The notes: generated from the letters alone by a model not told the origin. A stretch of 50,050 nt of DNA from a virus (IMGVR_UViG_3300025676_000024:1-50050), one strand, 5' to 3'; positions 3,964 through 24,128 are shown, numbered from the stretch's first letter. A program made the numbers and translations.

Positions 3964-4476
3964 TTAAGATTCTTCTTTTATGTCGTCTTCTGTAATTTCT
4001 TCCCCAATAACAACAGAAACATTTTGAACTTTATCGTAGTCAATGTTCTCAATGTAGTATTTTCTAGTAACAGGTTCTTCTGCTTCGTCAGGGGTGCTTA
4101 CAATATAATTTGTAAATCCTGGCATTTGCAGGGGACAAGATAATTTTGGATAATCTAATTTACCATATTCATCTGCATTTGCTATCAAAAAGGTTCGACT
4201 GGCATCTCCACATCCACATCCGCCACAGATATGTTTAGTGGGGTCAGTTTCACTTTGTTGTAGATATTCACAGGGAGGCAATTCTCCTCCATTTTCGGTA
4301 TTACCAAAACAACTTAAAACTCTAAGTTGTTTAATGGGTTTATTAATTTTATTGTTGTTTATATTTCTAGAAGCAAGAGCCACAGCAAAACTTTGCACCA
4401 TGCTCAATTTTTTCTTTAATCCCCTATGGTTGGGGTTAATGGGTACTTTTCTAAATTTCTTTTGTTCTTCTGTCAT
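3964..4476 (-). CDS. Hypothetical small Cys-motif (putative metal-binding) protein
   Basis: 170 aa; RVLSC...PPC...HICGGCGCG...LSCP pattern; GGAG RBS and a sigma70-type promoter upstream. Confidence 0.8.
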   Translation of the reverse strand: MTEEQKKFRKVPINPNHRGLKKKLSMVQSFAVALASRNINNNKINKPIKQLRVLSCFGNTENGGELPPCEYLQQSETDPTKHICGGCGCGDASRTFLIANADEYGKLDYPKLSCPLQMPGFTNYIVSTPDEAEEPVTRKYYIENIDYDKVQNVSVVIGEEITEDDIKEES

Positions 4477-4507: not shown

Positions 4508-4535
4508 ATTATACACCATATACTAACATTGTCAA
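4508..4535 (-). promoter_or_regulatory. Consensus sigma70-type promoter TTGACA-N16-TATAAT
   Basis: Minus strand reads TTGACA ATGTTAGTATATGGTG TATAAT, about 30 nt upstream of the 4476 start. Confidence 0.75.
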
Positions 4536-4551
4536 GAGAATTTTATTAGGT

Positions 4552-6252
4552 TTAATCATCTACCACTTCAAGTGCTAGAAATGTTCTGGCTCTATGTTTG
4601 TTATCTCGTCTAGATAAAACAACTTTAGAAGAATCTCCGAAACTTTGGCAATATACTAATTGTGTTTTAGTTCCATAATCAAAACCGATTTCAAAAGTAG
4701 ATGTCCAATAGAATGTAACATTATTTTTTTGTAACCCCGCATAAGGGAAATTTGGAGTATCATCAGATATCGTTGTATTGGTAATAAAATCTAAATCATT
4801 AACTTGATTCGCTACGAATCCCCATAAATCTTTTGATGCTATACACCAACTCCACCAAACATTTTTATTATATGTTCTATTGATATTTTTTGTCAAGTTG
4901 AGATTATTGTGTGAGTGATTATACCAAGAATCCCAACTAGAACTGCTCAACACATCGGAAGAATTTAAGTCTGCTTCATATGGCAAATTTGAACCACCAA
5001 AATCATTTTCTGCAATTATTATAGCAAATGTTTTATTAGAGTTTTTAGTATTATCATTATTTTTTGGATAATAAGGATAGCAACTACCTGTGTTTTCTGA
5101 TGTACCAAAACATTCACTGCCTGGACTGTGTGTATCATCTGCAACAATAAATTCACCAAGATATCTACCTTGAGCCAAAACTCTATCACCAAGTTTCCAA
5201 GTGTTTATAATACTTCTTGGTATTTTATTTTTATTTGTCATATATGCTTGTATGTCTGTGGTAATTGTATCTGAACATGCAATTTGTTTTCCATCTTTAT
5301 TATAACCAGACCAAATACCTTTATATTCATCGCATATTGTTTTAGTTTCATTACTACAAACTAATTCTTTGGATTTTAAATATGAGCAACTAGATTTTAA
5401 AGTGTCAGAATAATTATCAAACAATAAAGCATTTATATTGCCCTTTGCAATGTAAACACCACTTCTTTTATCCTTTTCATAAAATCCTTGACTTTCTCCT
5501 GATGTATATTGTTCACTGTCGCATCCTGCTAGAACAATATCCCCTCCTTGATTATCAGGGTCATACCAACCATTACCGATTGGATGAATGCAATAATTAT
5601 TTGGATTCCAACTAATTCCTGTTGCTCCATGAGCATTACCAATAACTGCACATTCTTTTGGAGAGCAAGTAGTGTCACAAGTATTACCAGAACAACATGC
5701 ACCAGGCCATCTAACATCAGGTTGCGTTCCACCCCTTGAACATAACTGGTATGCACCAATCTTCACCATATCTGGAGCATTTGCATCATCATCGTAAGGT
5801 TCGATTTTTGTATATGTGTCACAAGATATTCCTTGCGCCCATACACCACCCCTATCAGAACATTCGCAAAAAGTTATATTGTCTTGTAAACCGCCTTGGT
5901 AACAAGGGAAGACCAAGGTTGGGTCGTCTGTATCTATCATTTCACAGTTTTGACTACTTTCGTTATATGCGTCAAAAAATCCAGTTGCACCATCAACACC
6001 TTGCCCTCCACCCCAATTATCTACATAACTGCAAGAACAGCAACAACCAGTTACACCCAAATTAGGGCATGCAACTTGTGTGAGGTCACCTATATCGTCA
6101 ACAGGTTGCCAGTGACCACCATTCACAACACAAGTATTATAATATTCTGCTACAGGACCTTCTGCACGAGCGTAACAACATGCACCTTGACTATTTGCGT
6201 TCGAGGTGTAATCTGCAATAGATTTAATTCTAGACCTATGTTGAATACTCAT
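4552..6252 (-). CDS. Cys-rich (GxCC-repeat) putative virion protein with C-terminal DUF1566/Lcl (CLec-fold)-like domain
   Basis: 566 aa; GACC/GCCC modules in the N-terminal half; C-terminus WCIASKDLW...FYWTST...HRARTF parallels the end of ORF 19650-22799; late promoter upstream. Confidence 0.7.
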   Translation of the reverse strand: MSIQHRSRIKSIADYTSNANSQGACCYARAEGPVAEYYNTCVVNGGHWQPVDDIGDLTQVACPNLGVTGCCCSCSYVDNWGGGQGVDGATGFFDAYNESSQNCEMIDTDDPTLVFPCYQGGLQDNITFCECSDRGGVWAQGISCDTYTKIEPYDDDANAPDMVKIGAYQLCSRGGTQPDVRWPGACCSGNTCDTTCSPKECAVIGNAHGATGISWNPNNYCIHPIGNGWYDPDNQGGDIVLAGCDSEQYTSGESQGFYEKDKRSGVYIAKGNINALLFDNYSDTLKSSCSYLKSKELVCSNETKTICDEYKGIWSGYNKDGKQIACSDTITTDIQAYMTNKNKIPRSIINTWKLGDRVLAQGRYLGEFIVADDTHSPGSECFGTSENTGSCYPYYPKNNDNTKNSNKTFAIIIAENDFGGSNLPYEADLNSSDVLSSSSWDSWYNHSHNNLNLTKNINRTYNKNVWWSWCIASKDLWGFVANQVNDLDFITNTTISDDTPNFPYAGLQKNNVTFYWTSTFEIGFDYGTKTQLVYCQSFGDSSKVVLSRRDNKHRARTFLALEVVDD

Positions 6253-6268
6253 ACAGTTTCCTTTATCT

Positions 6269-6276
6269 TATTTATA
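6269..6276 (-). promoter_or_regulatory. T4-type late promoter TATAAATA
   Basis: Plus-strand TATTTATA upstream of the 6252 start. Confidence 0.8.
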
Positions 6277-6280
6277 ATCA

Positions 6281-9200
6281 TTAACATCGAGGCCACTCAC
6301 AATTCCCTTCACAATATATTTCTTGACACAATCCATTCACCATATATCTACTAATTCCTTCTGTGGAATTTTTTGTTATTTGTTTCTTTGTGGTGTTTGA
6401 TATTTTCTTTTCTTTAATTGGTTCTTCTGTGCTATGATAGTATGGAACATAGCCTGGCATGGATGGGTCCATACCTGCATTATCTGGAGCAACTGCTGGT
6501 TCTGAGTAATATGCTCGTTCTTCCAAATCTTCTTCGATTCCAGGACTCCAACAACCCCAACCATCCCAGTCGTCCGTACCACACCCCTCCTGCGAAGCGC
6601 AGTTGGCTTGTGTACACCCAACTTGTCCAGGTGGAACGCAACCTTGGGGACAACAAACAGAACCAACACCACCATCGGCCGCGCACCCTGCAGCGCAACA
6701 TGCAGAGTCACCCGCAGTCGAACAAATATGACCCGGCGCTCCATCACAACATACAAAGTCAGTTTTGTCAACTATTACTAGGTCGTCTGGCCAGACCCCG
6801 CAACATAGTTGGGTCACATCGTCATAACATACATTGTTGCAACATTTCTGGTCCATCAACCCTTGCGAATCGCCAACAGGACAACACACACACTCATATG
6901 ATTCACCAGTAACTTGGTCAGTTTTACAACAACATCCTTTTCCAGAATAAAATTCGCCGTCGATGCACATGATGGCGCCATCACAACAGTACTGCCCATC
7001 GTTGGGCCCCCCCGCGCGAGTATCAATACATGCTCCATCGCAACATCCAGTATCTGGCAGGTCGTATGGGTCATTGTGACCAGTAGATATTCCACAATCG
7101 CAATCAATATTCCCCATCCAATGACAGGCCAATTTCCAGTTTCCATTACAGCAAGTCGTTCTAGTAAGGTGTGTACCATTGCAACAATATCCCACCCCAT
7201 CATTGATACATTCACCATCTATTTCCCAGAAACCACCTTCTACCGTTCCACAGTCACCACCATTATCGCTAACATAGTAACAACCACACAAATCCGCACC
7301 TGTAAAGTAACCAACAGCATCCATATCTTGCATCATACAATCCATTTCAGTTGGACAGCACATCCAATTTCCGGTCCATTGACAATTGCCATCGGTCTCT
7401 GGGTCATCAGAAGTTTGACCACCACAGTCCCATTCTTTTGTCCAACCAGTACAGCATTGCCCAAACCAAGGTGGTTCTTGTTCAACAGTTGGATTGCCAC
7501 TTCCATCGCATATGTTTGGTGGTATACAGTTATAACCCAAAATAGTTCCGCATTGTTCATGAACAATGTGACAATTAGGAGGTTCAGCACAGTCACACCG
7601 TTCTTCCCAACCACAACAAGAAACTTCTCCAAAACCGGGACAGCAACCGTTTTTCCAATCATCATACGGAATGTCCAAGTCCCAATACCAAGGGCAACAC
7701 TCGTGTTCTTTTCCAGTAAGACTTAAACAACAGGACTCACCTGGGTCTATTAATACTTCATTAAGAATTTCTTCGTTTGCACAACATTCTGGTTCGCCAT
7801 CAGCCCATTCATGCGCGCAACAGGTTTCTCCCGGTTGTATGAGGCAACCTCTACATGTTGTGTTAGTTTTAAAAGTCCATACTCCTGTGGTAGTATCGCA
7901 ATAATTATGGTCTGTTATTACACATAAATAATCGGCATCACACGGTTCATATCCTGTTGTATGACATGACCCCCAATCACAAAACCCAGGGTCCTGCGAG
8001 TTGTTGCTACCAACCCAAGCGCCACCAAGGGCAATACAACCTTGCACCGTGTGGCACGGACTGCACCAGCATGTGCCATTGGTTGGACTAGAACCAACCC
8101 AGAACCCACCCCAAGCATCACATCCACTTTGTTGATGACAATTTTGGCAACCACAGTCAATCATATCCGGGATATCAGTTGTGGGGTCCATATCTGCATT
8201 ACAAGGATTATCATCATACGGAAACATCATACCTGGTTTTTCACAGCATGTGGTTGGCTCCCAACCAACACCGTCAAACCACTCACTCTTACAACATGTT
8301 TCACTAATTTCGTGACAACATTTACTTGTGGCCTCGCCACAACACTGTTGGTGATTCATACAACACTTGTCACTACAATAGAAACCACCGGGACAATCTG
8401 ATGGCCAAAAACCACAACATCTTTCTTCAGTACATACACCATCCACACATGTAAAACCGCACATGTCTTCACACTCGCAACTAGTACAACCACCAACACC
8501 AAAACATTCTCCGAACATATCGTCTTCAAGACAATCACCAATACACCCATTACAATTTGGCATCGGCGAACTGTTATTATCACCCGGCTCACAACATCTC
8601 AAAAGAGCGCTTCTCAGGAATAGTGGAGTATCTTCATCCAGTGTTGCACAACACGGTCCATCCTTGCACATTTGCGGTGAAAATGGATGGTAACATGTAC
8701 CACCACACCCTCCACCAAATTGAGGCCAGTATGGCATACACATATCACCACCTGCCCAACAACAACAACACATATCGGCGGGTTCTGCACATGAGATTTG
8801 TTCTAGAATCCCACATGTACTATCGCATCCATGAAAACCACCACCACTCGCCTCACATGCTTCTTCGGTTGTGTGGGCACAATGCGCGAATACTGTGTTT
8901 GGTAGTACACAACATGCACCAGGGCAACTTCCACCACCATTGCAAGCAACGCATTGGCCGGGAATTCCCGATTCTTTTAAGTCACCACATACTCCATCAC
9001 AACAACAACTTCCATCAGGACAATCGTTATCGTTTGCACAAAGTTCGCCCGGGCATACTTCACACACCCCGTCTTCGCAACAGAATTGCAACCCATTGAA
9101 AAGACAATCAGAATCGTCTGTACAACCAGCGGCAGCGCAACAAGAGGTTTCAGGCGGCACATCGTCACATGCAGTATTAATGTAAGTTCCACCACTTGCC

Positions 9201-11185
9201 GTACAATCTTCTAATGTACTATTATTTAAAACTTGTTCACCACCGTCACAAGTACAGCAACAACCAAGACATGTAGTTGCGTCACAGGATGTACCACTAC
9301 CTTGGAAATCACCAACACAACCCGATTCATAAACTTCGGAACATATCCCATTAGTACAACATGCACCAGTAGACACACAAATATCTGATTTTCCACACTG
9401 ACAACTTCCAACTTCTGGTGTGCATGAACCACCACCACCACTACTAGCGTGCCAAGTACCACCAAGATAGTCACATTCTGAAAATGTTAAATCTCTACAA
9501 CAATTATTTTGAGGTACTGATGGAGAATCACAACAGTTACATTGTGCGGCATTTAAACAACAAATTCCTGTTTCAATATGATAACAACAAACATCTGTTT
9601 CACAATCGGTGCCAGGTCCCATGAATATACCACCAAGGGATGAACACATTTGATTGGTGACATCTTGACATTGTTCTATTCCTTCAATACAACATGCACC
9701 AACTACAACACTATGGTCACAACAATCAACAGTTCCACAAATACCACCTTCTACTGGAACACCACCCAAAACATATTTGCAAATATTTGACGACACTGAA
9801 CCAAGTTCAGTAGAACCCACACTATCTCCAACACAAACACCATCTACACAACAAGCAACCCATTCTTCTTCACAAGGACTTGCACATAAATCTTCCATGA
9901 TGTAACAATCAATTGGTGTGGGTGTTTCTAGTTCTTCTAAGTACCATGCACCATCGTCTGTTTCTGCATCTTTATAATACAAGTACTCCCAGAAACTTCC
10001 ACCAAAGTAATTACATTCTGCTAAACCTTTTCCTTCGATGCAAACACCAGTTCCGATATAACTTCCCCAGTTGCCACCATCACTACAACAAATTCCTTCA
10101 GCAGTAAGACCACAATTTCCCGAACAATCGGAAAGCATACTCCATACTGCCATGTTCTTTTCTTCGCATATATCTTTTGTTGTATATTCTATACATTGAT
10201 TATCGCCTTGGTCATCTATGAAACAACAAGAACCGATATTTATTATCCCATCACAATCTCCATGTGATACTCCATATCCTCTAACTGTAAATGAAGCATT
10301 CCATGTAGCACCACCATCATTGCTTATGAAATTTATAATGTCTTCTGCACAGGAAAAGAATGCATCGTCTTCGTCAAAATAAACATTTGTAGGCCAGTCC
10401 CATATGTTATTACTTTCAATAACAGTTGTAAAACTAAAGACTTCATTTGAATTAAATTCACCAGTGAACCCTGCAATTCCTATTGGTGTGCTGATTTTAT
10501 ATACAGAACCATTTCGTATTTCTAATTGTATTCCTGTTCCATCGCCAGCAGTTTCTCCACCACTAATATATTCTCCACCAGTAATACCTACAATGTCAGT
10601 AGATTCTATTTCTGCTACAAATATAATATTTTCTTCTGGGTCTAGTGTCACAGTATTATCAAATGACATCATACCACCAGACTCGAAAGTCAACCCCGAT
10701 GCACTCGCAGTTCCTCCGTCAGATAGGTATAAGAATTTATCTGTGGCAAGTGTCCCCGCAGTTCCACCTTGCTTGATAGCGTCCCCACTTATTGCAATAG
10801 TTTTACTGTCTTGAGAAAGATAAACAGAAATAGAACCATCAGAAGTAATACCTCTAAACCACATTGTAGCACCAGTAACACCGTTACCTACTGTACTGAA
10901 TATAGTTATACCATCACCAAGATTAACCCCATTAACCGTCCCTGTTGCTCCTGTAATCCCTCCAACACCCTTTATTTGAACAACACTACCATCTGATAGG
11001 TTTAAATTCAAATATGGAAATTCTTTGCTAGTAGAAACAACATGAACACCAGTTGCACCAGTTGGACCTGTATTACCTGTAGCACCAGTGTTCCCTATAG
11101 GTCCAGCAACAGTCGCGCCACTTGGACCTGATGGACCAACTGCGTTAAAGTCTGGTGTTATTGAACTACTTCCGATTACTGGCAT
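6281..11185 (-). CDS. Giant Cys-rich putative tail fibre/adhesin, paralog A
   Basis: 1634 aa; MPVIGSS start, short Gly-X-Y collagen-like run, conserved ~320-aa domain, then GxCC and other di-Cys repeats; no signal peptide; late-promoter variant CATAAATA at 11216-11223. Confidence 0.75.
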   Translation of the reverse strand: MPVIGSSSITPDFNAVGPSGPSGATVAGPIGNTGATGNTGPTGATGVHVVSTSKEFPYLNLNLSDGSVVQIKGVGGITGATGTVNGVNLGDGITIFSTVGNGVTGATMWFRGITSDGSISVYLSQDSKTIAISGDAIKQGGTAGTLATDKFLYLSDGGTASASGLTFESGGMMSFDNTVTLDPEENIIFVAEIESTDIVGITGGEYISGGETAGDGTGIQLEIRNGSVYKISTPIGIAGFTGEFNSNEVFSFTTVIESNNIWDWPTNVYFDEDDAFFSCAEDIINFISNDGGATWNASFTVRGYGVSHGDCDGIINIGSCCFIDDQGDNQCIEYTTKDICEEKNMAVWSMLSDCSGNCGLTAEGICCSDGGNWGSYIGTGVCIEGKGLAECNYFGGSFWEYLYYKDAETDDGAWYLEELETPTPIDCYIMEDLCASPCEEEWVACCVDGVCVGDSVGSTELGSVSSNICKYVLGGVPVEGGICGTVDCCDHSVVVGACCIEGIEQCQDVTNQMCSSLGGIFMGPGTDCETDVCCYHIETGICCLNAAQCNCCDSPSVPQNNCCRDLTFSECDYLGGTWHASSGGGGSCTPEVGSCQCGKSDICVSTGACCTNGICSEVYESGCVGDFQGSGTSCDATTCLGCCCTCDGGEQVLNNSTLEDCTASGGTYINTACDDVPPETSCCAAAGCTDDSDCLFNGLQFCCEDGVCEVCPGELCANDNDCPDGSCCCDGVCGDLKESGIPGQCVACNGGGSCPGACCVLPNTVFAHCAHTTEEACEASGGGFHGCDSTCGILEQISCAEPADMCCCCWAGGDMCMPYWPQFGGGCGGTCYHPFSPQMCKDGPCCATLDEDTPLFLRSALLRCCEPGDNNSSPMPNCNGCIGDCLEDDMFGECFGVGGCTSCECEDMCGFTCVDGVCTEERCCGFWPSDCPGGFYCSDKCCMNHQQCCGEATSKCCHEISETCCKSEWFDGVGWEPTTCCEKPGMMFPYDDNPCNADMDPTTDIPDMIDCGCQNCHQQSGCDAWGGFWVGSSPTNGTCWCSPCHTVQGCIALGGAWVGSNNSQDPGFCDWGSCHTTGYEPCDADYLCVITDHNYCDTTTGVWTFKTNTTCRGCLIQPGETCCAHEWADGEPECCANEEILNEVLIDPGESCCLSLTGKEHECCPWYWDLDIPYDDWKNGCCPGFGEVSCCGWEERCDCAEPPNCHIVHEQCGTILGYNCIPPNICDGSGNPTVEQEPPWFGQCCTGWTKEWDCGGQTSDDPETDGNCQWTGNWMCCPTEMDCMMQDMDAVGYFTGADLCGCYYVSDNGGDCGTVEGGFWEIDGECINDGVGYCCNGTHLTRTTCCNGNWKLACHWMGNIDCDCGISTGHNDPYDLPDTGCCDGACIDTRAGGPNDGQYCCDGAIMCIDGEFYSGKGCCCKTDQVTGESYECVCCPVGDSQGLMDQKCCNNVCYDDVTQLCCGVWPDDLVIVDKTDFVCCDGAPGHICSTAGDSACCAAGCAADGGVGSVCCPQGCVPPGQVGCTQANCASQEGCGTDDWDGWGCWSPGIEEDLEERAYYSEPAVAPDNAGMDPSMPGYVPYYHSTEEPIKEKKISNTTKKQITKNSTEGISRYMVNGLCQEIYCEGNCEWPRC

Positions 11186-11218
11186 TGTTTTTATTCCTAG
11201 ATAGAATCTCCATTATAT

Positions 11219-14200
11219 TTATGTTCCGTTAGTGCATGCTGGATATGGACAACCATTTATATCACAATCAATCCATTCACACCTTCCGTCTGGAAGTTGA
11301 AGATATTCAAAATTTGTTACAAGGGGTTGAGGACCTCCGCAAGATGGGCAACCCCAACCAGCCTCCCAAGACTCGGCACAACTCAACGTGGGATGTCGGA
11401 AGGAGGATGTGAAAAGTTCGCATTCATCGAAGAGCAAATCATCACAGCAAAAAGGGCCCGCAGGAGTGTTGTGACAGCACGCCATGATGCCACAACTATC
11501 ATGAGTACAATCCACACATTCATTCACATAAGCATCGCACTCCATGTTGTACTGGATGAATTCATCGCAAGTTACATCACCACCAGCACAATTCCAATTA
11601 CAGCAATAAACTTGGTTGCATTCAATACCCAAACAACTATTTATAGAGTGCCAAACATCTGGTGCAGTGCAATCAATTGCATCAATATCTGTTTCGCAAA
11701 TTGCTCCAACTGCCCGGCAACATCTACCTCGCGGGTCTGTATCGCATATGTCATCAATGCAGGTTGTATCAACCCCGTTCCAGTATGAGGTTTCGCTCAC
11801 CAACCAACACTCGCATTGTGTTAGCATGCTACAGGATTCAATCCCATTACAACATGCTCCAATATCAGAATCATTGCAAGTACATAGAACATCAGCGCAA
11901 ATTGTACCCTCACCCATCCAAACAGAACCAGTGGTAGCATTACACGAACCCTCAGACCTAATGTCGCAATCAAAATGATGGCAACATGCGCCGAGAGGGT
12001 CATTGGGAGTTCCACAAAAAATACCTTCTACTTCACAAGTTGTGTTGTCGCCAAGGTATGTGTGGCCCTCCATTGCTTCACAAATGCACCGTTGCTCCAC
12101 GAAGCATTCGGCAGCGCACTCTGCGTCAAAAATGCCAGTATATATCTGGTTGTATATTAACGCAAGGTCATCAGAAGTCGGAGAAAACCAATAATAAATA
12201 TTTGAGCCCAAATTGGGAGTTGCGATGCTTGCCAAAAAACCCTGGTCTGCGCCATCGCCCAAACCGATAGTATATATGGTAACTCCATTAGATTTTAAAT
12301 ACGATGCCTTCTGAAGCGCGAGTTCTGAATTCGCATCTGCGCCGTCAGACAATATAATAATAGCACGATGCGAGAAGTCCTGTGCAGGACCACCGTCAGC
12401 AAATTGCAAGATAATTTCATTAAGTCCCTTAGACATCCAAGTTGAACTCATAGATTGAAGTGCCAGAACATCCACAATTAGTCCTTCATAATTGTTGTCA
12501 AGACTGTGATTTAAATAACCATGTTCCGAATATGATACAAGACCTAGGTGTTTGTCAACTTCATTAAGGTCGATGAAATTTTGAATCAATGTATTTATTG
12601 CTTCTTTAGCCGCGGGTAACAATGCCCCCATAGACCCACTCACATCAACCGTAAAAATTAAATCTATACCACTACATGGCACCGCAGGTGGACAACACGC
12701 GCCGGAAGTCGTGACCGCAACACATGGCATATCGCAATCCCCAGCGGACCATATTCCACCACTACCACATGAATTCGATGAAGAATAAGTACAACCATCA
12801 CCGCACGGATTACAACATCTTCCGCAAGGATTGGTTTCGCAAGTAGTATCATCTCCAGCATATACACCATTAAGCAATGAACACTCGTCAGGTGGGAAAA
12901 TGATACAAGGATTGTTAATAATACAACACGCGCCTTGCACATCAGTTGGGTCATCACATATACTACCATCACCGCACAGAGTGTTTATCCCCTTAAACTC
13001 ATCACCCCTAGCAAGACATATTTGAGCAGTTGTTATATAACATTCAGTTGCAGAACAACACGCACCCACATCGTTCGTTGAACACTGGGAACAATCAGTA
13101 ATACCGAGCCACTCACCGTAATACTCATCACATACACACTCTTGTAATTCTTCGCAATAATGCACGCCATTTTGGTAATAACAGCACAGTCCAATATCCC
13201 CACCACTGCAACAAGTTATATCTTCGCAAGTAGTATTATCTCCAGCATAGAAATAGTTCAAAATGTTGCAATCTGCTGAAGTAATGACGCCACACCAACC
13301 ACTCACATAATCACAACATGCACCTGTTGGGTCGGTTGGTTCTTCACAATCTACACATAAGTCTGTGCCTTCATCCCAAACTCCACCACCGGCACTACAA
13401 TCTGCTTCAAATTGGTCTGTAAGACATTGCCAATCGGCAGTGCAACAAGAACCAGTTGGTTCTTCACAATCTACACATAAGTTTGTGCCTTCATCCCAAA
13501 CTCCACCGATGGCAAGACAATCTGCTTCAATTTCTTCTGTAAGACATTGCCAATCGGTGGTGCAACAAGAACCAGTTGGTGCGGTACAGTTTTTCGCTGG
13601 ACAATGGGTATAGTCACCATCATAAGTGCCAGAAACACCACTACATTCACTTTCAGTAATTTCCGAACACTTATAATTACCCCAACAACACGCACCTGTT
13701 GGTGATGGTGTCGTGCATGTTACATCGACACACTCTACACCATCGCCTTGATATATACCACCTGCATCGATACATTCTTGTTCAGTGTATACACCACTCT
13801 CAAAACATGTTTCAGAAATACAACACGCACCATCAGTCGGTTCTGGGACAATACAGTTCGTGTTCCAACAAATCGACCCATCGCCTTGCCAGTCACCACC
13901 CTCGCCTACACACCTTGGTTTAGTTGTCATCGAACATACTCCACTATTACAACACGCACCATTTGAAGCAATACTACAGGGATTACTTGAGCAATCAATA
14001 TCATAACCTAACCAAACACCACCATGTTCATCGCGACATTCAGAACAAGTAACAGTCAAGCAATTATCTGTCACGCAACAAGCACCAAATTCTTCAACAC
14101 ATCCACCACTCACATTATTTGTACATTTTGTGGCATTCCAAACACCACCTGGTAATTCATCACATTGACAAATATCTAAATCTAAACAGTTCATACCACA

Positions 14201-16306
14201 GTGACCAGTCTGCTGCCAACAACATCCACCAATCGTATCATCTTCACAACACTCTACACCAATACAAGTAGGAGAACCATTCCAAGTATATCCTTGAGTT
14301 TTACAACTTGTTTCGGTGTCAATAATGCAATCATCTTTACCTCTACAACATGCACCAGCATCAGGCGACCATCCACATAACTCATCACTACAAGTACTAT
14401 TATTTCCCATGTATTCACCACCAAGCAATGCTACACAATTATCTTGGGTTTGATTATTAATACATTGGTTTGCATATTGGCCCTGAATACAACACGCACC
14501 TGTTGGTTCGTCTGGTTCTACGCAAAGTGAAGAAGTTCCACATTGACAATTACCACTCTCTGGGCAAGTCTTTCCTCCAATCCATCTGCCTCCAATTCTT
14601 TGACACATAGAACTGTTTAGATTTTTACAACAGTTAGAATTTTCTCTACCCGAACCACAACAATCACAAGCATTAGAGTCTAAACAGCATAATCCTATTT
14701 CATCAGTGAAACAGCAGATATCATTTAAACATTCAGTATCTGGACCCATGAATATACCACCACTCGATGTACAGTCAAATGCAGATATTACATCACAACT
14801 TGAAATTTCTGGATAACAACATGCACCTTCCATCTTACTATAATTACAACAATCCACTTCACCACATACTGCGTTTTCTACTACTTGTCCACCAAAAACT
14901 CTCTTACATATTAGTGGTGAAACTGAACCGTGTATTGTACTCCCTATCGAATCACCAATACACACACCATCTTTACAACAAAGACTTTCTATACAAGGTT
15001 CTGCACATAATTTATCATACCCCTCTGGTAATGTCATTGTGCATTCAATTTTTTCTGGTTCTCCTACTAATAACTCCCCTTCAATATCATAATAGAAATA
15101 ATTCCAGAAACTTCCTCCGAAGTAATTACATTCTGCAACTCCCGAACCTTGAATACAAAGTCCAGTGTCTTGAAAGGCGCCCCATTCGCCCCCTTCACTA
15201 CAACAAATGCCTTCCGCAGTTCTACCACAGTTCTCCCCACAAGAAATTTGCGAGGCCCAAGTTCCATTATTGAAATCTTCTTGACAAGAATTTTGTGTAA
15301 TATATTCTATACATTGTTGTGACCCATTGTCATCATTATAACAACAAGAACCAAATGTTTGTATCCCATCACACTCACCATATTCTGCACCATATCCTCT
15401 GGCAGAAAATGAAGCATTCCATGTAGAACCACCATCAGTCGTTATAAAATTAACAATATCTTCTGCACAGGAGAAGTATGCATCGCCTTCATCAAAGTAA
15501 ATATTTGATGGGAAAGTCCATATATGATTTCCATCAACTATAGCAGAGAAACTAAAAACTTCATCTGAACCAAATTCCCCAGTAAAGCCACCAATTCCAA
15601 TAGGTGTATAAATTTTATATACCGAAGCATGTCTAACTTCTAATTGTATTCCTTTACCATCTCCGGCAGTTTCTCCGCCTTCAACAACTATCCCACCAGT
15701 AATGCCAACAATATCATCGAAACTTGCAACAGAACCAATAGTTATAATATTTTCTTCTGGGTCTAGTGTCACAGTATTATCAAATGACATTATCCCACCA
15801 GATTCAAATGTTAATCCTGAAGCACTAGCAGTACCACCACTAGAAAGATATAAGAATCTATCTGTAGAAAGTGTATCCGCAGTTCCTCCCTGTTTACTAT
15901 TATCACCACTAATAGCAATAGTGTTGCTATCTTGAGATAAGTAAACAGAAACAGAACCATCAGAAGTAATTCCCCTGAACCACATTGTAGCACCAGTAAC
16001 ACCATTACCTACTGTACTAAATATTGTAATACCACCACCAAGATTAACACCATGAACTGCACCAGTTGCACCAGTTATGCCTGCAACTCCATCTATTTGA
16101 ACTATAGAACCAACGGATAGGTGCAGATTTAAATATGGAAATTCTTTGCTAGTAGAAACAACATGAACACCAGTTGCTCCAGTATGACCAGTTGCACCAG
16201 TCGCTCCAGTATTCCCTATAGGTCCAGCAACAGTAGCGCCACTTGGACCTGATGGTCCAACTGCGTTAAAGTCTGGTGTTACTGAACTACTTCCGATTAC
16301 TGGCAT
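11219..16306 (-). CDS. Giant Cys-rich putative tail fibre/adhesin with vWA domain, paralog B
   Basis: 1695 aa; N-terminal ~600 aa closely similar to paralog A; about 22 GxCC modules by hand count; vWA domain with VDVSGSM (MIDAS DxSxS) and IIILSDG. Confidence 0.8.
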   Translation of the reverse strand: MPVIGSSSVTPDFNAVGPSGPSGATVAGPIGNTGATGATGHTGATGVHVVSTSKEFPYLNLHLSVGSIVQIDGVAGITGATGAVHGVNLGGGITIFSTVGNGVTGATMWFRGITSDGSVSVYLSQDSNTIAISGDNSKQGGTADTLSTDRFLYLSSGGTASASGLTFESGGIMSFDNTVTLDPEENIITIGSVASFDDIVGITGGIVVEGGETAGDGKGIQLEVRHASVYKIYTPIGIGGFTGEFGSDEVFSFSAIVDGNHIWTFPSNIYFDEGDAYFSCAEDIVNFITTDGGSTWNASFSARGYGAEYGECDGIQTFGSCCYNDDNGSQQCIEYITQNSCQEDFNNGTWASQISCGENCGRTAEGICCSEGGEWGAFQDTGLCIQGSGVAECNYFGGSFWNYFYYDIEGELLVGEPEKIECTMTLPEGYDKLCAEPCIESLCCKDGVCIGDSIGSTIHGSVSPLICKRVFGGQVVENAVCGEVDCCNYSKMEGACCYPEISSCDVISAFDCTSSGGIFMGPDTECLNDICCFTDEIGLCCLDSNACDCCGSGRENSNCCKNLNSSMCQRIGGRWIGGKTCPESGNCQCGTSSLCVEPDEPTGACCIQGQYANQCINNQTQDNCVALLGGEYMGNNSTCSDELCGWSPDAGACCRGKDDCIIDTETSCKTQGYTWNGSPTCIGVECCEDDTIGGCCWQQTGHCGMNCLDLDICQCDELPGGVWNATKCTNNVSGGCVEEFGACCVTDNCLTVTCSECRDEHGGVWLGYDIDCSSNPCSIASNGACCNSGVCSMTTKPRCVGEGGDWQGDGSICWNTNCIVPEPTDGACCISETCFESGVYTEQECIDAGGIYQGDGVECVDVTCTTPSPTGACCWGNYKCSEITESECSGVSGTYDGDYTHCPAKNCTAPTGSCCTTDWQCLTEEIEADCLAIGGVWDEGTNLCVDCEEPTGSCCTADWQCLTDQFEADCSAGGGVWDEGTDLCVDCEEPTDPTGACCDYVSGWCGVITSADCNILNYFYAGDNTTCEDITCCSGGDIGLCCYYQNGVHYCEELQECVCDEYYGEWLGITDCSQCSTNDVGACCSATECYITTAQICLARGDEFKGINTLCGDGSICDDPTDVQGACCIINNPCIIFPPDECSLLNGVYAGDDTTCETNPCGRCCNPCGDGCTYSSSNSCGSGGIWSAGDCDMPCVAVTTSGACCPPAVPCSGIDLIFTVDVSGSMGALLPAAKEAINTLIQNFIDLNEVDKHLGLVSYSEHGYLNHSLDNNYEGLIVDVLALQSMSSTWMSKGLNEIILQFADGGPAQDFSHRAIIILSDGADANSELALQKASYLKSNGVTIYTIGLGDGADQGFLASIATPNLGSNIYYWFSPTSDDLALIYNQIYTGIFDAECAAECFVEQRCICEAMEGHTYLGDNTTCEVEGIFCGTPNDPLGACCHHFDCDIRSEGSCNATTGSVWMGEGTICADVLCTCNDSDIGACCNGIESCSMLTQCECWLVSETSYWNGVDTTCIDDICDTDPRGRCCRAVGAICETDIDAIDCTAPDVWHSINSCLGIECNQVYCCNWNCAGGDVTCDEFIQYNMECDAYVNECVDCTHDSCGIMACCHNTPAGPFCCDDLLFDECELFTSSFRHPTLSCAESWEAGWGCPSCGGPQPLVTNFEYLQLPDGRCEWIDCDINGCPYPACTNGT
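13335..13580. repeat. 120-bp in-frame tandem duplication (40-aa GSCC module x2)
   Basis: Copies start at 13335 and 13455; 11 mismatches in 120 nt by hand; encodes PTGSCCT.DWQCLT...EADC...GGVWDEGT.LCVDCEE. Confidence 0.95.
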
Positions 16307-16339
16307 TGTGTTTCATTCCTTGTAGAAGTTTCCATAATA

Positions 16340-16347
16340 TATTTATA
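16340..16347 (-). promoter_or_regulatory. T4-type late promoter TATAAATA
   Basis: Plus-strand TATTTATA upstream of the 16306 start. Confidence 0.8.
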
Positions 16348-16351
16348 TCAA

Positions 16352-19300
16352 CTATCCACAGGAATTGCCGTTTGGACATTCACCACCGACAACACCACCA
16401 TCACATGTTCCTTGATGTACCCAACAGCCACCGTAAAAGTCACAACGAGTTTCATTCATTTGGTATGCATAGTACATACCCCATCCTTGTTCAATACAAT
16501 CACCTGCTTCTGGAATCTGCCAATCATCAAATTCAGATAACCATTCAAGGCCTTTCAATTCCAATGACCAAGTATCATTGAAGCAACAACAACCATCCAT
16601 ATTAACATTCTCACAATTATTATCTAGTAAGTCTGAAGCAGAAGTACCATGATGTATTGCCATGCAAACTTCGTCAGCACTTAGCCATGGATGTGCAGGG
16701 CTGCCCTCACTACCAATCCATTCACATTGACGACCCATAGTTTCGTTGACAGCGCCTTCCCCTTCTATTCTCCAGAAACAACATGTTGACATTAATTCTT
16801 CTGTAGGATAACCACTTGGGCAAGGGTCACCAGTATCAGAACAACACAACATATTGTTCGGGTCGGTAATTCCATTATTTAAATTACCTCCTGCTAATCC
16901 TTTTAAATCAGTACCATCATGGTCACAACAACATTCATAAGGAGTCAAATCTGCTAATATAATACTACCTGTACTAATTGTTGTTGTAAAAGTTGTAACA
17001 TCCTCACCACCACATGAAATTGCATGACCAATTTGATTTAAAGTATTTTTTATTTCATTGGATGTAATTGTTTTATAATATTCTTCCACTCCATCAACAC
17101 TAGGTGTTGCTAGTTCACGCACGAAATTAAGGTCTGAATTTTCACCTGTGTTTACACCTATAGCGTAAATGATAACACCTGCTTCATCCCTTAGTTTTCG
17201 TGCTTGTTCAATCGCTGCATCTTTTTCTTCTATAGAACGCATGTTTCCGTTAGACAGTATGATTAATATTTTTCCGTGAGTTCCTTGTGTAGCACTATTA
17301 AAATTAATACCAACATATTCCAACGGTCTAGCAAGTACTCTATCTCCAATTGCCATACTGTGTATGCCTTCTTTTACTATTGCATAATTATTGGTAAGAG
17401 AAACATCCACCGAAGTGTCTGCAAACACGGAATCATTAAATCCTATTTTTTCATATGTTGAATCTAGTTGGTCTACAAACGAAGTAAGTGCGGGTTTAAT
17501 AATATTTGATAATTGGAACATCTCTATATTAGTATCAACTTGCAACATTACATTTGGACTGCTTGTTAGATTTTGTCCAACACATTCTGGCGCAAGCAAG
17601 TGATTACCACCCAAAGACGATGGAGGTCCTATTATTGGGATAGATAAACTATAATTATTAGTCGAACATCCACTCCACTTAATATGGGAGTAAATATTCT
17701 CGACACCATCGTTCATATCTGAACATGCATCTCTTGTTTTCTGTGTACAATCCCAAGTACCTTCTAGTAGTGTTCGGTAACAACACATACCCTCACATTG
17801 GTTTTCTATATCTACACTGCCTGGTTGGCATATTGGAAGGTCTTCAACATAACACTGTCCAGGTCCATCACCGTAACCAACACCTTCACATGCACAAATG
17901 TTTACATGGTTTCCACTTTCATCTACACAAGGACCGCCGCCTATTATTTGCCTCCATCCAACACATGTAGGACATGGTGGATATATTGGAAGTCCATTGC
18001 CTCCAAATAATGGGGTCCCACTTGCATCTAAACAAACACCATCAACATTAACTAAACCAGCAGGACCAGTTCCCCAATCTGCAATCCAACCATCATAGTC
18101 CCTTCCACTCTCTGGTGACCATGTACAATTAAATGGTGCATATGCGGCATCTTCATTAATTCCACCACCACCAATTCTTGAAGGTCCTGCACATCGAGAA
18201 CCGACACCCCAGAAGACCCCTTTAGTAAAACCATCCGATGCAGTAAGAGTTGAACAAATCGCAGGGGAAGTTTCATAACATGCTTCTTCCACACAACAAG
18301 CACCAATGCCTCCTTCTAGACAACAGTTTACAGCCTCACTTCCTGTACACACACCACCATCAAAGAATACACTGTTAGACTCAAACGAACATTGATATTC
18401 ACTCATTTCATAACAAGAACCCTCTACACAACAAGCACCTGTGGCTTGACAGGGTTCTGGACAACCACCTAGAATTTCAACACCAATACAAGTCTGTCCT
18501 TCAACATAGAAACCACCATAAACATTTCTACATTTATTCAAAGAGGTTTCTGCACATATTCCATTTACACAACATGCACCTTCTGAATAACAGTTTGGTC
18601 CTTCTGGTCTTGCAAGACAAGTTGTTGTATCAAACACACCACCAAGATTAGTACAATAATCTTGCGTAACATAATCTACACATCCTGGATAATCCTCCCC
18701 TACCGTACTATCAGTACAATAACAACAAGAACCAAGAGCGCTTGCACTTGAATATTGAGTATCATGTGTTGTCTTTGAATTGCTAAACACATGTGTTACA
18801 TCTGTAGAAGTTCCCAATACCGCATCGTGTGTCTGTCCCATATGAAATCCAGAATAGATTTCAGTATTACCGTCAATGTTTGTACTTATATAAGTGAATG
18901 GAACAAACGCACCAGTTTGACCAGTAGAAGAACCAACACTCGAAGTATTTGTAATTTCATCTTCACTATCGAGATTTACTGAATCTTTTGCTTCTCTAAA
19001 TGTTGTTAATCTTGCTGTAAGATTTTTCTTATCATCATCCCAGAAAGTATTTAATGAACCATGTGCAGACAACCCATCATATATGTGAAGCAATTCTCCA
19101 GTATTGCCCATAATACCATACTCGTATGTTGCTCCCCTTATTCGGATATAATAATCCGTGACACCATCTATAGAAATATCTCTACCACTTGAAGTGAGAG
19201 TTCTAAAATATGCAGTCCCGCCAGCAGTACCATTTGATTCTAAATATGAAAAAATTTCACTGTAATCTTGGTGGTTAGTATAGGTATTATCAATTTCAAA

Positions 19301-19648
19301 GGATGTATGCCATTGACCATTATCAAAATTAATACCATCACCTGTTGCACCTGTACAACCTGTTACTGCAATTGTTGTTCCTGTATCAAGAGTAAATGTT
19401 ATTGTTCCAAGACCATAAGAATTACCACCAGAGGTTATACCATATGAAACTCCTACTCCGATTTCACCACCAAAGTCATAATTTAGGTCAAATGTAATTC
19501 CTTCCCCAATAATTCCAGTATCACCAGTTGGTCCTAGTGGACCAGTGTTGCCAGTTGGTCCTGTAGGTCCAGTGTTGCCAGTTGGTCCTGCAATAGAACC
19601 ACTCACACTTGTTTCTTGTATTCTGCTTGAACCGTAAATTACTGGCAT
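16352..19648 (-). CDS. Cys-rich putative fibre protein with degenerate vWA domain
   Basis: 1098 aa; MPVIYGSS, then GPTGNTG collagen-like run, GACC modules and a vWA-like segment (NVMLQVDTNIEM...KILIILSNG...GVIIYAIGV...ELAT). Confidence 0.75.
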   Translation of the reverse strand: MPVIYGSSRIQETSVSGSIAGPTGNTGPTGPTGNTGPLGPTGDTGIIGEGITFDLNYDFGGEIGVGVSYGITSGGNSYGLGTITFTLDTGTTIAVTGCTGATGDGINFDNGQWHTSFEIDNTYTNHQDYSEIFSYLESNGTAGGTAYFRTLTSSGRDISIDGVTDYYIRIRGATYEYGIMGNTGELLHIYDGLSAHGSLNTFWDDDKKNLTARLTTFREAKDSVNLDSEDEITNTSSVGSSTGQTGAFVPFTYISTNIDGNTEIYSGFHMGQTHDAVLGTSTDVTHVFSNSKTTHDTQYSSASALGSCCYCTDSTVGEDYPGCVDYVTQDYCTNLGGVFDTTTCLARPEGPNCYSEGACCVNGICAETSLNKCRNVYGGFYVEGQTCIGVEILGGCPEPCQATGACCVEGSCYEMSEYQCSFESNSVFFDGGVCTGSEAVNCCLEGGIGACCVEEACYETSPAICSTLTASDGFTKGVFWGVGSRCAGPSRIGGGGINEDAAYAPFNCTWSPESGRDYDGWIADWGTGPAGLVNVDGVCLDASGTPLFGGNGLPIYPPCPTCVGWRQIIGGGPCVDESGNHVNICACEGVGYGDGPGQCYVEDLPICQPGSVDIENQCEGMCCYRTLLEGTWDCTQKTRDACSDMNDGVENIYSHIKWSGCSTNNYSLSIPIIGPPSSLGGNHLLAPECVGQNLTSSPNVMLQVDTNIEMFQLSNIIKPALTSFVDQLDSTYEKIGFNDSVFADTSVDVSLTNNYAIVKEGIHSMAIGDRVLARPLEYVGINFNSATQGTHGKILIILSNGNMRSIEEKDAAIEQARKLRDEAGVIIYAIGVNTGENSDLNFVRELATPSVDGVEEYYKTITSNEIKNTLNQIGHAISCGGEDVTTFTTTISTGSIILADLTPYECCCDHDGTDLKGLAGGNLNNGITDPNNMLCCSDTGDPCPSGYPTEELMSTCCFWRIEGEGAVNETMGRQCEWIGSEGSPAHPWLSADEVCMAIHHGTSASDLLDNNCENVNMDGCCCFNDTWSLELKGLEWLSEFDDWQIPEAGDCIEQGWGMYYAYQMNETRCDFYGGCWVHQGTCDGGVVGGECPNGNSCG

Positions 19649-19649
19649 G

Positions 19650-22600
19650 TTATTGATTAATTCCTTGGTCTGAATCTCTTAATGTTTTTGGTAAATCCCA
19701 AAGTTTTTGATTTCCATCCCCACCCGTTGCATACTTACCATCACATCTAACTAAACGAATAGGTCTTACTTTATATGTATTCTGTGTTCTATTTTTCTTT
19801 CCTACCATGAACTTATTTTCGTCTTGATTTATGTTAAATTTCATTGCCCATGCAAGAGTGCCTGGGTCAGCAGTAGAACCACCAATACCTATAACACCTT
19901 CTCCTGATGCAGTTCTTCCTTTTGTTTCATCGAATGCACCAGTGGATGTCCAATACCAACCATCAAGTGGAACAGCACCCTTTACCAACAAGGAAGCATT
20001 TAAATTGAAGTCATATGGTCTACTGGTTATACAGTTGGAAGCAATGAATGACATTTCATCATGACTTGGAACATACCACGAGGAAACTTCAGGAATATTT
20101 GAACCTGTTCCACCTGTAATAGTTGTTAAGGCATCGTCCATTAATCTTGTTGCTCTGAATGCAGAAATATAATCACTTGTCAATCCTGGACCAAAGTCCG
20201 TTGATGAGTAGTGACCATTTTTATCATCGTACCCTTTATACAAAACATTGTCAGCATTAATGATTCTGATATTATTGTAAATTCCCCATGCTCTATGCCA
20301 AAGTCCATGTGCAGACTGCAAAGGTTTTGTTGTAAGTTTCTGTGCATATCCTGTACCAAGTCTTCGTGCATTTCTACATGATGTAAATGTATGACTTCCT
20401 AAAACATTTAATGATTGTTCACCAATATTTTCATTAAACCAATATCCTTCAGAAAGTTTAAATACTGTTTCAATATATTTTTCGTTTATCTCATCAACCT
20501 GTCCTGTGTTTGGATTGTAAAGTGGTCCCCACGAACTTCCTCTATTACCCCAATAGAATTCTTGAGTCGCACCATCAAAGTCTGAATTGTTATAGTTTAC
20601 AACCTGTCTATCACCAGTTATTGCAATTGGAGATGGTGAGATTATCATATAGTATGCATCTGGTCTTGATAGTTCATCATCCTCTAATGATAATTTATTA
20701 TAATCTGGGCAACCCTTTTCTGAAGTAAAACCATATCCATGCCAGTCATATTTGGAACGATATATATCACAAGTTAATCCCAAATTGTCCGTTAAAGAAC
20801 CAGTTGCTCCAAGCATCAATTCATTCCAAGTAGCAGTTTTATCTTTACCGAAACTAGATGAACCGAATACCTGTGAACCAAATGGTCTATAAAGTCCAAC
20901 CACGATACCACCTGCATATTCATCTCCAGGCACAAGGTCTAACCCCGCGATAGATGCAACGCAACTACTATGTTCATCGGTTCTACATGTAATATCATCA
21001 CAATCTATACCAGCACCTGCATATAAGTTACCATCTTCTATACACGAACTTCCTGTAATTCCATTAACACATGTTCCACCCGAATAACAACAAGCACCTG
21101 TTCCACCATAACAAATTTCAGTTCCATTATCTAATGAACATATACTTCCTTCTCCATGAAAATGATAACCGAGTGTAAGACATCCACTTCTTGTTTTCTG
21201 TGAACATCCTCCTCTACCATCACAACATGCACCCAAACTTCTACTAGCATTATCACAGTCCATATTCCTACAGTCTGCTGATAGTCCACCGAATGAAGTT
21301 TCGACATCTAAAAGTTCACCAAGATTTATACAATCGTCTACACTTAAATCATTGAAGCATTCTATTTTTCCAGAGTTTGTATAGTGAACACAACATGCAC
21401 CTGTATCAAAACAAATACTTCCTGTCCATCCACTAGTTAATCCACCACATACTGTTGCAGAACCATGCCAATATCCTGTACACAAACCTTCTATTGTGTG
21501 TATACATTTACCTTCTCCTCTACAGCAAGCACCCGTAGAACCATCATCACTAAATGATTGTCTTTCGCTGCCGTTTATATTAACTAATCCAGTTGGATTA
21601 TCATATAAAAAGTCACCACATAAAGCATCGGGATTGTTATCATGACAGAAAAATGGGTCCTCAGAAGTGTTTTCTATTATATTAGTATCAGCAGATTTCC
21701 ATTGAACTATATTTCCGTGCCATGCGGCACCATTTGGACAAAGTATACTACCGTGGTCATGTTGAGGACCTGGACAATCAGAATATCTTGGGTCACACGG
21801 CAACCAGAAGAAATTAAATATATCTGTTCCACCACTAAAACATGGTTGTCTATCGAAAGGCCAAACAACATTGGAAAATTGGTAATTGTTTTGATTTCCA
21901 TATGTTGCACCTTTAACTATAAGTGTAAAGGATTTACCAACATCCGTTAATACACCAATATTATTTCCTGTGTAACCAAAACTAGCATCTGCAATATCAA
22001 TTATTTGTATTGGTCCAGTACTACCAACACTATAATCAAATCCGTCAAGAGTAGTTAAGTCTAGTTCAACTATACCAAACTTATTTGGTTCTAATATACC
22101 TCTAACTCCGCCAGACTGCAAATCATATGGTGGCCAGTCACCAGCATATGTTGATATTTCATATGTCGTTCCTAAACCGTCATTGTTGTGTCGGAAACTT
22201 AAATATTTTGAGTTTTCTTTATAACTTTTTAGTTTAACACTAATACCACCAGAAGTTCCACTTATATTATAAGTTGCTCCAGTAAGTCCTGTCAAATATC
22301 CACCAACTAACTGACCAGTAACACCAGAACCACCTGTAACATCTAAGTAACCAAAGTTCCCACGGTCGTAATTTAAGTCAATCGTTGGTGGTTCATTGTA
22401 TGCTGTACTTGTTAAAATACCACCAGTACCTTCAATGGTTCTGATAGTAATTTTATGGGAAGAATCTTGAACCTTAAATACTGTAGCACCACCAACGGCA
22501 TCATAAGTATTTCCACCATCTATAATAGTTTCTGTATTACCAGTAGGTCCTATAATAGAATTAGGAGTTGTCCAATTTGAAATAATAGAAGTTCCATATT

Positions 22601-22799
22601 CCCATCTTTCAAATTCTGTATAAAGTCCACCTGTTGCATTTTTATACATTGCGGTGATACCACCACCACTCCACCCAATTGGTCCCGCTACGGTTGCTCC
22701 AGAGGGCCCAGATGGTCCAGTTTCACCAGTATTACCAGTAGGTCCAGTTACTTCGGTTGTCCCTATAACTTTAAAATAACTGCTACCATATACTACCAT
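19650..22799 (-). CDS. Cys-rich putative fibre protein with C-terminal DUF1566/Lcl (CLec-fold)-like domain
   Basis: 1049 aa; MVVYGSS, then collagen-like GPTGNTGETGPSGPSGATVAGPIG, four GACC modules and the C-terminal pattern WYVPSHDEM...WYWTST...AWAMKF...VRPIR. Confidence 0.75.
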   Translation of the reverse strand: MVVYGSSYFKVIGTTEVTGPTGNTGETGPSGPSGATVAGPIGWSGGGITAMYKNATGGLYTEFERWEYGTSIISNWTTPNSIIGPTGNTETIIDGGNTYDAVGGATVFKVQDSSHKITIRTIEGTGGILTSTAYNEPPTIDLNYDRGNFGYLDVTGGSGVTGQLVGGYLTGLTGATYNISGTSGGISVKLKSYKENSKYLSFRHNNDGLGTTYEISTYAGDWPPYDLQSGGVRGILEPNKFGIVELDLTTLDGFDYSVGSTGPIQIIDIADASFGYTGNNIGVLTDVGKSFTLIVKGATYGNQNNYQFSNVVWPFDRQPCFSGGTDIFNFFWLPCDPRYSDCPGPQHDHGSILCPNGAAWHGNIVQWKSADTNIIENTSEDPFFCHDNNPDALCGDFLYDNPTGLVNINGSERQSFSDDGSTGACCRGEGKCIHTIEGLCTGYWHGSATVCGGLTSGWTGSICFDTGACCVHYTNSGKIECFNDLSVDDCINLGELLDVETSFGGLSADCRNMDCDNASRSLGACCDGRGGCSQKTRSGCLTLGYHFHGEGSICSLDNGTEICYGGTGACCYSGGTCVNGITGSSCIEDGNLYAGAGIDCDDITCRTDEHSSCVASIAGLDLVPGDEYAGGIVVGLYRPFGSQVFGSSSFGKDKTATWNELMLGATGSLTDNLGLTCDIYRSKYDWHGYGFTSEKGCPDYNKLSLEDDELSRPDAYYMIISPSPIAITGDRQVVNYNNSDFDGATQEFYWGNRGSSWGPLYNPNTGQVDEINEKYIETVFKLSEGYWFNENIGEQSLNVLGSHTFTSCRNARRLGTGYAQKLTTKPLQSAHGLWHRAWGIYNNIRIINADNVLYKGYDDKNGHYSSTDFGPGLTSDYISAFRATRLMDDALTTITGGTGSNIPEVSSWYVPSHDEMSFIASNCITSRPYDFNLNASLLVKGAVPLDGWYWTSTGAFDETKGRTASGEGVIGIGGSTADPGTLAWAMKFNINQDENKFMVGKKNRTQNTYKVRPIRLVRCDGKYATGGDGNQKLWDLPKTLRDSDQGINQ

Positions 22800-24110: not shown

Positions 24111-24128
24111 TATTGTTTAACTCCTGTA

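Follow-up and report, generated by a model that had tools for sequence, protein, structure and literature searches.

A conserved array of cysteine-rich late genes in uncultured aquatic T4-like phages, probably encoding attachment fibres with disulfide-type beads

The window, i.e. the whole stretch of 50,050 nucleotides that was analysed, is a 50-kb virus record carrying the late region of a T4-like phage, with the gene order gp17, gp16, gp15, gp14, gp13, array, gp7, gp6, gp25, gp53, gp48, gp4, gp26 and gp32, the gp32 being at best about 57% identical to that of cyanophages. The array comprises five consecutive minus-strand ORFs in the region 4552-22799, encoding proteins of 566, 1634, 1695, 1098 and 1049 aa with gaps of 1-45 nt, and the ORF calls bear out the number and sizes given in a preliminary description of this DNA. 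A small cysteine-rich repeat, hereafter called the bead, is present in all five. The array and its flanks contain the following features:

3964-4476, minus strand: 170-aa six-cysteine gene (SC...PPC...CGGCGC...CP), DUF6171-like, candidate maturation factor
4508-4535, minus strand: perfect sigma-70-type promoter match (TTGACA-16-TATAAT) before the 170-aa gene
4552-6252, minus strand: ORF E, 566 aa, three degenerate beads, without a collagen start
6269-6276, minus strand: T4 late promoter motif TATAAATA, upstream of ORF E
6281-11185, minus strand: ORF D, 1634 aa, paralogue of ORF C with 65% identity across 620 aa; most of its 199 Cys are found in non-canonical CC repeats
11216-11223, minus strand: late-promoter-like CATAAATA, upstream of ORF D
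11219-16306, minus strand: ORF C, 1695 aa, which has a collagen start, 15 beads and a vWA domain with DxSxS (aa 1215-1370)
16340-16347, minus strand: T4 late promoter motif TATAAATA, upstream of ORF C
16352-19648, minus strand: ORF B, 1098 aa, which starts with 10 collagen triplets and carries four looser beads and a degenerate vWA domain (aa 716-858)
19650-22799, minus strand: ORF A, 1049 aa, with a collagen start, a beta-rich region at the N-terminus, four GACC beads at aa 423-605 and a predicted C-type-lectin/Lcl-fold domain at the C-terminus (aa 610-1019)
19743-20972, minus strand: predicted C-type-lectin-fold tip of ORF A, fold match to 8q4e and 4eps
22815-26465, minus strand: two fibre-type genes with few Cys, encoding 431 and 778 aa, located upstream of the array in conserved order

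The five proteins hold 509 cysteines in total, with Cys shares of 5.1% in E, 12.2% in D, 10.7% in C, 5.8% in B and 3.4% in A. GxCC occurs 3, 12, 22, 6 and 4 times in E, D, C, B and A, respectively, each count lying above the maximum of 1000 shuffles (2, 11, 8, 3 and 2). As described earlier, four ORFs begin with an M(P/V)V(I/Y)..GSS-type start (MPVIGSS twice, MPVIYGSS and MVVYGSS) followed by a Gly-X-Y run, here 6-10 triplets; collagen triplets are absent from the start of E and of a sixth bead protein, ORF F, presented below. The absence of a signal peptide was likewise borne out, since no hydrophobic N-terminus exists in any of the five (best 10-residue hydropathy at most 1.0, a heuristic measure rather than SignalP), and so was the presence of own promoters, which was observed for three of five genes: TATAAATA lies 24 and 41 nt upstream of two genes and CATAAATA 38 nt upstream of a third, with two array genes having neither. 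Sigma-70-type promoter-like sites occur overall at chance frequency (68 vs 66.9), and the perfect match before the 170-aa gene is clear in few relatives. Two more perfect sigma-70 matches on the minus strand fall within ORFs E and A (4867-4896 and 22266-22295).

The bead has the consensus GACC-x5-C-x7-C-x3-GG-x-aromatic-x-G-x4-C-x4-C, i.e. 37 residues with six Cys, for which no matching model was found in Pfam, NCBIfam or PHROG. Profile copies number 3, 3, 15, 4 and 4 in E, D, C, B and A, covering 18, 7, 34, 14 and 15% of the respective proteins. Hence the earlier statement that the ORFs are built from a module of about 40 aa holds as to its presence in all five and is overstated as to extent, since coverage is 7-34%. 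In ORF D, canonical modules hold 19 of 199 Cys, and because canonical beads contain only the smaller part of the Cys in D and F, the cysteine chemistry of these two proteins may differ. The ORF A model predicts its four beads as hairpin-helix-strand units with pLDDT near 80. Among 67 homologues of ORF A, Cys is the most conserved residue (mean 0.95; 29 of 34 Cys at 90% or more), and no conserved His is found in the bead region. ORF C contains 32 CC and 9 CxxC vs 19 expected, and ORF D 48 and 12 vs 24 expected; their His content is 1.3-1.7%. A weak match (E 0.007 over 37 positions; range E 0.007-0.17) links the bead profile to the iRhom1/2 homology domain (PDB 9xy4, 8snl), in which one segment aligns all six bead Cys and for which eight disulfides are described (PMC11248996); iRhom differs in being an animal membrane protein with two partial copies, and at this score homology is not established. 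Taken together, Cys conservation, the lack of a conserved His, CC above and CxxC below expectation and the likeness to iRhom favour a bead that would be held by three disulfides rather than by metal.

The search of viral and bacterial proteomes proposed in the preliminary description spoke against a module confined to phages. ORF C residues 735-1000 retrieved 286 proteins; among the best 120, the 28 named by organism are 24 Planctomycetota and four Eisenbacteria, and 95 have a hydrophobic N-terminus vs 1 of 73 phage homologues of ORF A. A pattern scan of 2 of the 64 parts of a genome collection, using a bead pattern biased to GC-rich genomes, gave 139 loci, and among the 80 of them that were listed titles name Phycisphaerae in 37, other Planctomycetota in 16, Eisenbacteria in 13 and others or none in 14. 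Four Phycisphaerae genomes contain 26-36 bead matches each. A profile made from bacterial-type matches only recovers 15, 3, 3 and 6 beads in C, D, A and F, and none in 120 shuffles. Judged from these sequences, the bead is abundant in apparently secreted proteins of Planctomycetota and Eisenbacteria and is not phage-specific. The GACC repeat of the secreted Planctomycetota and Ca. Eisenbacteria proteins and the phage bead share the six-Cys spacing and GG-aromatic-G, whereas phage carriers lack the hydrophobic N-terminus and have a collagen-triplet start. Two further bead-rich proteins, P0076 and P0113, have no hydrophobic N-terminus and a different start, and are probably tail proteins of unrelated phages. 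All eight bead matches of a Micrococcales bin (G006) lie on one 8.5-kb contig, C30 (L054-L055), which is probably stray.

The adhesion-type domains proposed earlier were confirmed in part. A vWA domain (PF00092) is found in ORF C with an intact DxSxS motif, DVSGS (E 9.5e-13, 49.2 bits), and in ORF B without it (E 4e-5, 24.3 bits). For Lcl_C/DUF1566 (PF07603), ORF A scored 15.1 bits (E 0.029) and its 21 homologues at most 18.6, below the Pfam cut-off of 34.9, which leaves the predicted fold as the support for this assignment. The tip in the ORF A model, with pLDDT mostly 80-95 (the N-terminal 200 residues are of low confidence), gave Z 8.6 to the Lcl C-terminal domain 8q4e (130 of 131 residues aligned, rmsd 3.5) and Z 10.5 to 4eps, the closest structure, with TvpA, a Bdellovibrio fibre domain and Mtd coming below the Lcl domain; a C-type-lectin fold is thus predicted for this tip. 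By eye, the C-terminal half of ORF E has motifs like those of the ORF A tip, for which a profile gave no confirmation. Lcl of Legionella is described as a trimer with a collagen stalk and a DUF1566 head, its C-terminal domain having no disulfides (PMC11162425). ORF A resembles it in combining a collagen region with a C-terminal lectin-fold head, and differs in its tip of about 400 aa with large insertions, its short collagen region, the beads in between and the score below the Pfam cut-off. In a viral structure library, 27 partial fold matches reached E 0.001 or lower, annotated tail fibres among them, all with low TM-scores; at this threshold Foldseek found no match for ORF A in the PDB. A spike or tailspike N-terminal domain at ORF A residues 192-383 was rejected, as Z values of only 4-5 lie within background. 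PDB sequence searches with the bead array, the ORF A profile and the hub halves described below returned collagen or nothing, and a language-model search with the ORF C N-terminus gave collagen and fibre clusters alone, all below 0.9. Compared with gp9-12, gp34-38 and wac, the array has no Pfam or PHROG match except in the collagen stretch of ORF B, which matches PHROG tail fibres (E 7e-5).

The order fibre-778, 431, A, B, C/D, E, 170-aa gene, gp13 is kept across 77 loci, with A followed by B in 74 of 75, and the 778-aa gene matches the tail-fibre family phrog_4492 (E 1e-34). B, C and D vary strongly in length and Cys content between loci (B, 365-1920 aa; C/D, 2-16% Cys; ORF C counterparts in close relatives, 1922 and 2569 aa), which is the pattern that would be expected of host-recognition parts. 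The array occupies the same position, from baseplate wedge to gp13, as the T4 gp9-gp12/wac slot and the fibre genes of cyanophage P-SSM2, whose ten tail/fibre proteins differ in having 0-1.3% Cys, no GxCC and no sequence match. Synteny hence agrees with the fibre slot between gp8 and gp13 assigned earlier, apart from three Cys-poor genes that intervene between the array and a gp8 presumed by position alone. The gene at the gp8 position (27530-29500) has no family match and carries 17 Cys with one GxCC-type cluster, and many relatives have it. Window DNA is present in marine runs from 10 studies, with at least half of its words in 3 of 19 rows. An assembly artefact was rejected, since one run, possibly the source sample, covers all 30 bins and shows hardly any differences, a run from a second study covers 28 of 30, and the ORFs are intact in relatives. 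Eight short pieces in an RNA run fall over ORFs B-E and may reflect DNA carry-over as well as expression. None of 50,697 GenBank phage records matches ORF A, the ORF C bead array, the 170-aa gene or the CGWC thioredoxin described below. The array genes are real, intact and order-conserved in dozens of uncultured aquatic T4-like phages.

A sixth member, overlooked when the array was described as five ORFs, lies between the halves of a gp27-like hub:

33035-33856, minus strand: C-terminal half of the gp27-like hub, with conserved Cys; phrog_350 positions 348-435
33884-38038, minus strand: ORF F, 1384 aa, seven beads, 154 Cys (11.1%), 14 GxCC, beginning MRTYKTCCCC, between the hub halves
38055-40244, minus strand: N-terminal half of the gp27-like hub with an extra domain ending NAHDGLCxC; assigned by fold and phrog_350 positions 173-276

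The product of 38055-40244 matches T4 gp27 (1k28_D) in Foldseek with E 2e-6 over about 265 columns, i.e. in the fold of its first 260 or so residues; the gp27 fold was matched for this N-terminal half, and the C-terminal half is assigned by PHROG and by the record G409 only, in which both halves form one 1457-aa ORF with an 800-residue Cys-poor insert. Unlike T4 gp27, the window hub consists of two genes around a variable Cys-rich gene, with no gp5 detected beside it. Among 22 distinct relatives in which a gene follows the N-terminal half, this half ends in HDGxCxC in 20, a slot gene comes after it in 21 (in all 21 with CCC within the first 15 residues), the second half follows the slot gene, here of 294-2745 aa, in 18, and the two halves are adjacent in one. 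A search for gp5 (PF06714) found none in 40 contigs, with a weak control, as P-SSM2 gp5 itself matched only at E 5.8e-4, and P-SSM2 gp5 as a query found nothing in the window, G001 or G409; the weak control leaves the absence of gp5 unestablished. ORF F may be an exchangeable central appendage, anchored by its own CCC start to the CxC end of the hub. A baseplate whose hub is split around an exchangeable insert, with gp5 not detected, would be out of the ordinary.

Two genes bear on how so many cysteines might be handled. The 170-aa gene has six invariant Cys and stands immediately before gp13 in each of the 18 loci that extend to gp13. None of 17 members matches Pfam DUF6171 (PF19668), the language-model score of 0.84 being a lead only. 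Its family has 321 representatives, of which the best 150 contain a CxxCGC-type motif in 127 and a fusion to thioredoxin in two; among 64 of these 150 scanned for fused domains, mostly chosen by length, a glycosyltransferase was found in 28 and a thioredoxin fold in two. The glycosyltransferase fusions, together with sugar clusters in G001 and G409, suggest that the 170-aa domain may act in decorating virion proteins. These clusters hold 20 or more nucleotide-sugar, glycosyltransferase and methyltransferase genes (G001, 8-28 kb, L005-L006; G409, 43-68 kb, L269-L270) and possibly serve virion or host-surface glycosylation. The fused thioredoxins are 45-46% identical to the copy in G409, and G409 and the closest long relative, G001, encode the same thioredoxin as a separate gene. 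This CGWC thioredoxin, with four Cys, is located at L006:13758-15251 in G001 and L274:8610-9134 in G409, and is fused to glutamine synthetase in many relatives. Its four Cys and the GTP are unchanged in all 16 rows compared, and 30 of 35 loci found with the fusion as query have CGWC and CGTP in an ORF. The protein thus carries the CGxC-aromatic and Thr-cisPro sequence signature of DsbC-type isomerases; the DsbC signature is given as CGYC/Thr-cisPro in PMC5909903, which describes Thr before cis-Pro as common in isomerases and as dispensable in the protein studied there. No family-level DsbC profile match was obtained for it, NCBIfam matches were all weak (best YruB, thioredoxin and TrbB), and no export signal is visible. 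It occurs in 3 of 40 array-bearing contigs, all fragments, and in 2 of the 12 that reach RNase H. The scan for thiol-oxidation genes proposed earlier thus yielded a partial lead in this thioredoxin and the 170-aa gene: no Erv/ALR gene turned up in nine incomplete records, among them a 157-kb record with an estimated completeness of 87%, and no positive control responded, and among five long contigs glutaredoxin was found in none and thioredoxin in one. G409 encodes a class II ribonucleotide reductase, which would need a redoxin.

The reading we hold to be probable on balance is that the array encodes host-binding fibres of a T4-like phage with a collagen-trimerised, disulfide-stiffened bead stalk and vWA or lectin-fold tips. 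The collagen start would likely trimerise the chains, the strings of six-cysteine beads are predicted to form the disulfide-stiffened stalk and the tips likely bind the host surface. Folding of the chains and their attachment to the baseplate would take place in the cytoplasm while the thiols are reduced, and oxidation by air or in the periplasm, at lysis or afterwards, would form the three disulfides of each bead; ORF F would be the central appendage on the split hub, joined through the hub CxC end and its CCC start. The bead itself may have been taken from surface proteins of a Phycisphaerae-type host, and its distribution points to Phycisphaerae as host, an argument that is weakened by the unrelated phage-like proteins carrying it. 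No real host link by spacer or DNA emerged in 401 Phycisphaerales-order genomes, the DNA matches in two of them being rejected as collagen-codon repeats. Tail-gene position, conserved order, late promoter motifs and partial fold matches to tail fibres support fibres; the shortness of the collagen runs, 6-10 triplets, argues against. The earlier proposal of modular adhesin-type appendages gains from synteny, collagen starts, vWA, the lectin-fold tip and the partial tail-fibre fold matches; the bead is not phage-specific. In line with that proposal, no already characterised fibre type was found in PDB sequence, Foldseek and GenBank phage searches, and no description of a GACC repeat or of such fibres was found in the literature, mostly openly accessible papers without their supplements. 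The premise that phage virions lack disulfides was too strong, as several disulfide-linked virions are cited (Milano, PD491P1, Q-beta) and disulfide-linked phage tails are reported in PMC13576161. Those particles resemble the array in having disulfides despite assembly in the cytoplasm, and differ in that few Cys crosslink their subunits, whereas the tandem small domains of the array would rely on internal disulfides. The same source (PMC13576161, 2026) states that disulfides can form spontaneously and that phage-encoded disulfide machinery has not been described. The rarity of the thioredoxin, the other roles available to it, the disulfide-linked phage tails and the statement that disulfides can form spontaneously together put oxidation at or after lysis first, although it is difficult to imagine more than 500 Cys per chain set being oxidised spontaneously and without error.

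Alternatively, the products might decorate the capsid or collar, or be set free at lysis as soluble decoys imitating surface proteins of the host. ORF A residues 192-369 match a Pseudomonas phage capsid spike (Z 5.0), and three genes have their own promoters; the fixed position among baseplate and neck genes and the sixth member inside the hub gene make this reading unlikely. Metal-stapling of the beads in the mature virion (Zn or Fe-S), with the 170-aa protein as metal donor, is unlikely too, and we rank it after decorations or decoys. Folding in a reducing cytoplasm, the CxxCGC-type motif of the 170-aa protein and the HDGLCxC and CCC ends at the hub-F junction, which resemble metal sites, would suit it. 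Metal sites have precedents in phage tail parts, such as His-bound Fe/Zn in T4 fibres, Fe-S in lambda gpL and Zn in PAAR. Against it stand the depletion of CxxC, the lack of a conserved His in the bead region, the secretion of the bacterial homologues and the disulfide bonding of the sole solved bead relative, the iRhom domain. Of the three routes offered earlier for the cysteines, metal-stapling of the bead is consequently the least supported, and a dedicated oxidation route is a partial lead.

In that route the same fibres would have their disulfides made or corrected in the cell by a phage relay consisting of the 170-aa protein and a cytoplasmic DsbC-like CGWC...GTP thioredoxin. The constant place of the 170-aa gene before gp13, its two thioredoxin fusions, the invariant Cys and GTP with the isomerase-like Thr (PMC5909903) and the thioredoxin of G001 speak for such a relay. 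Its doubtfulness, greater than that of metal, comes from the small share of array contigs with the thioredoxin, its frequent glutamine synthetase fusion and possible reductase role with the G409 enzyme, the lack of Erv/ALR matches in a search without a responding control, the far commoner glycosyltransferase fusions and the dispensability of the Thr in the protein of PMC5909903. Least probable of all is the broadest proposal, in which this phage clade would build its entire host-contact apparatus from a host-derived disulfide bead, including a central appendage replacing the gp5 needle in the split gp27 hub, and would encode its own cytoplasmic thiol relay to fold it; if true, bacteriophages would here be seen for the first time to have machinery that forms disulfides, a counterpart of the poxvirus pathway.

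The host-binding fibre reading being kept, the array is a real, undescribed variant of phage attachment fibres, and a widespread aquatic phage clade without a cultured member appears to build such fibres from an uncatalogued disulfide-type mini-domain. This gives a new repeat family to define and a pointer to Phycisphaerae as hosts, and poses the question of how a virus assembled in the cytoplasm forms hundreds of disulfides; the 170-aa gene and the CGWC thioredoxin make phage-encoded disulfide machinery testable in vitro. Elsewhere in the window, a 479-aa low-complexity protein with TNNNKTIEKHHTD repeats (44219-45658) follows gp26 at the position of a hub or tape-measure gene, and a conserved Gly/Thr-rich 476-aa gene without family match (47056-48486) adjoins gp32. 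In G409, two tail-tube and two tail-sheath paralogues lie in tandem (L271:12807-16669).
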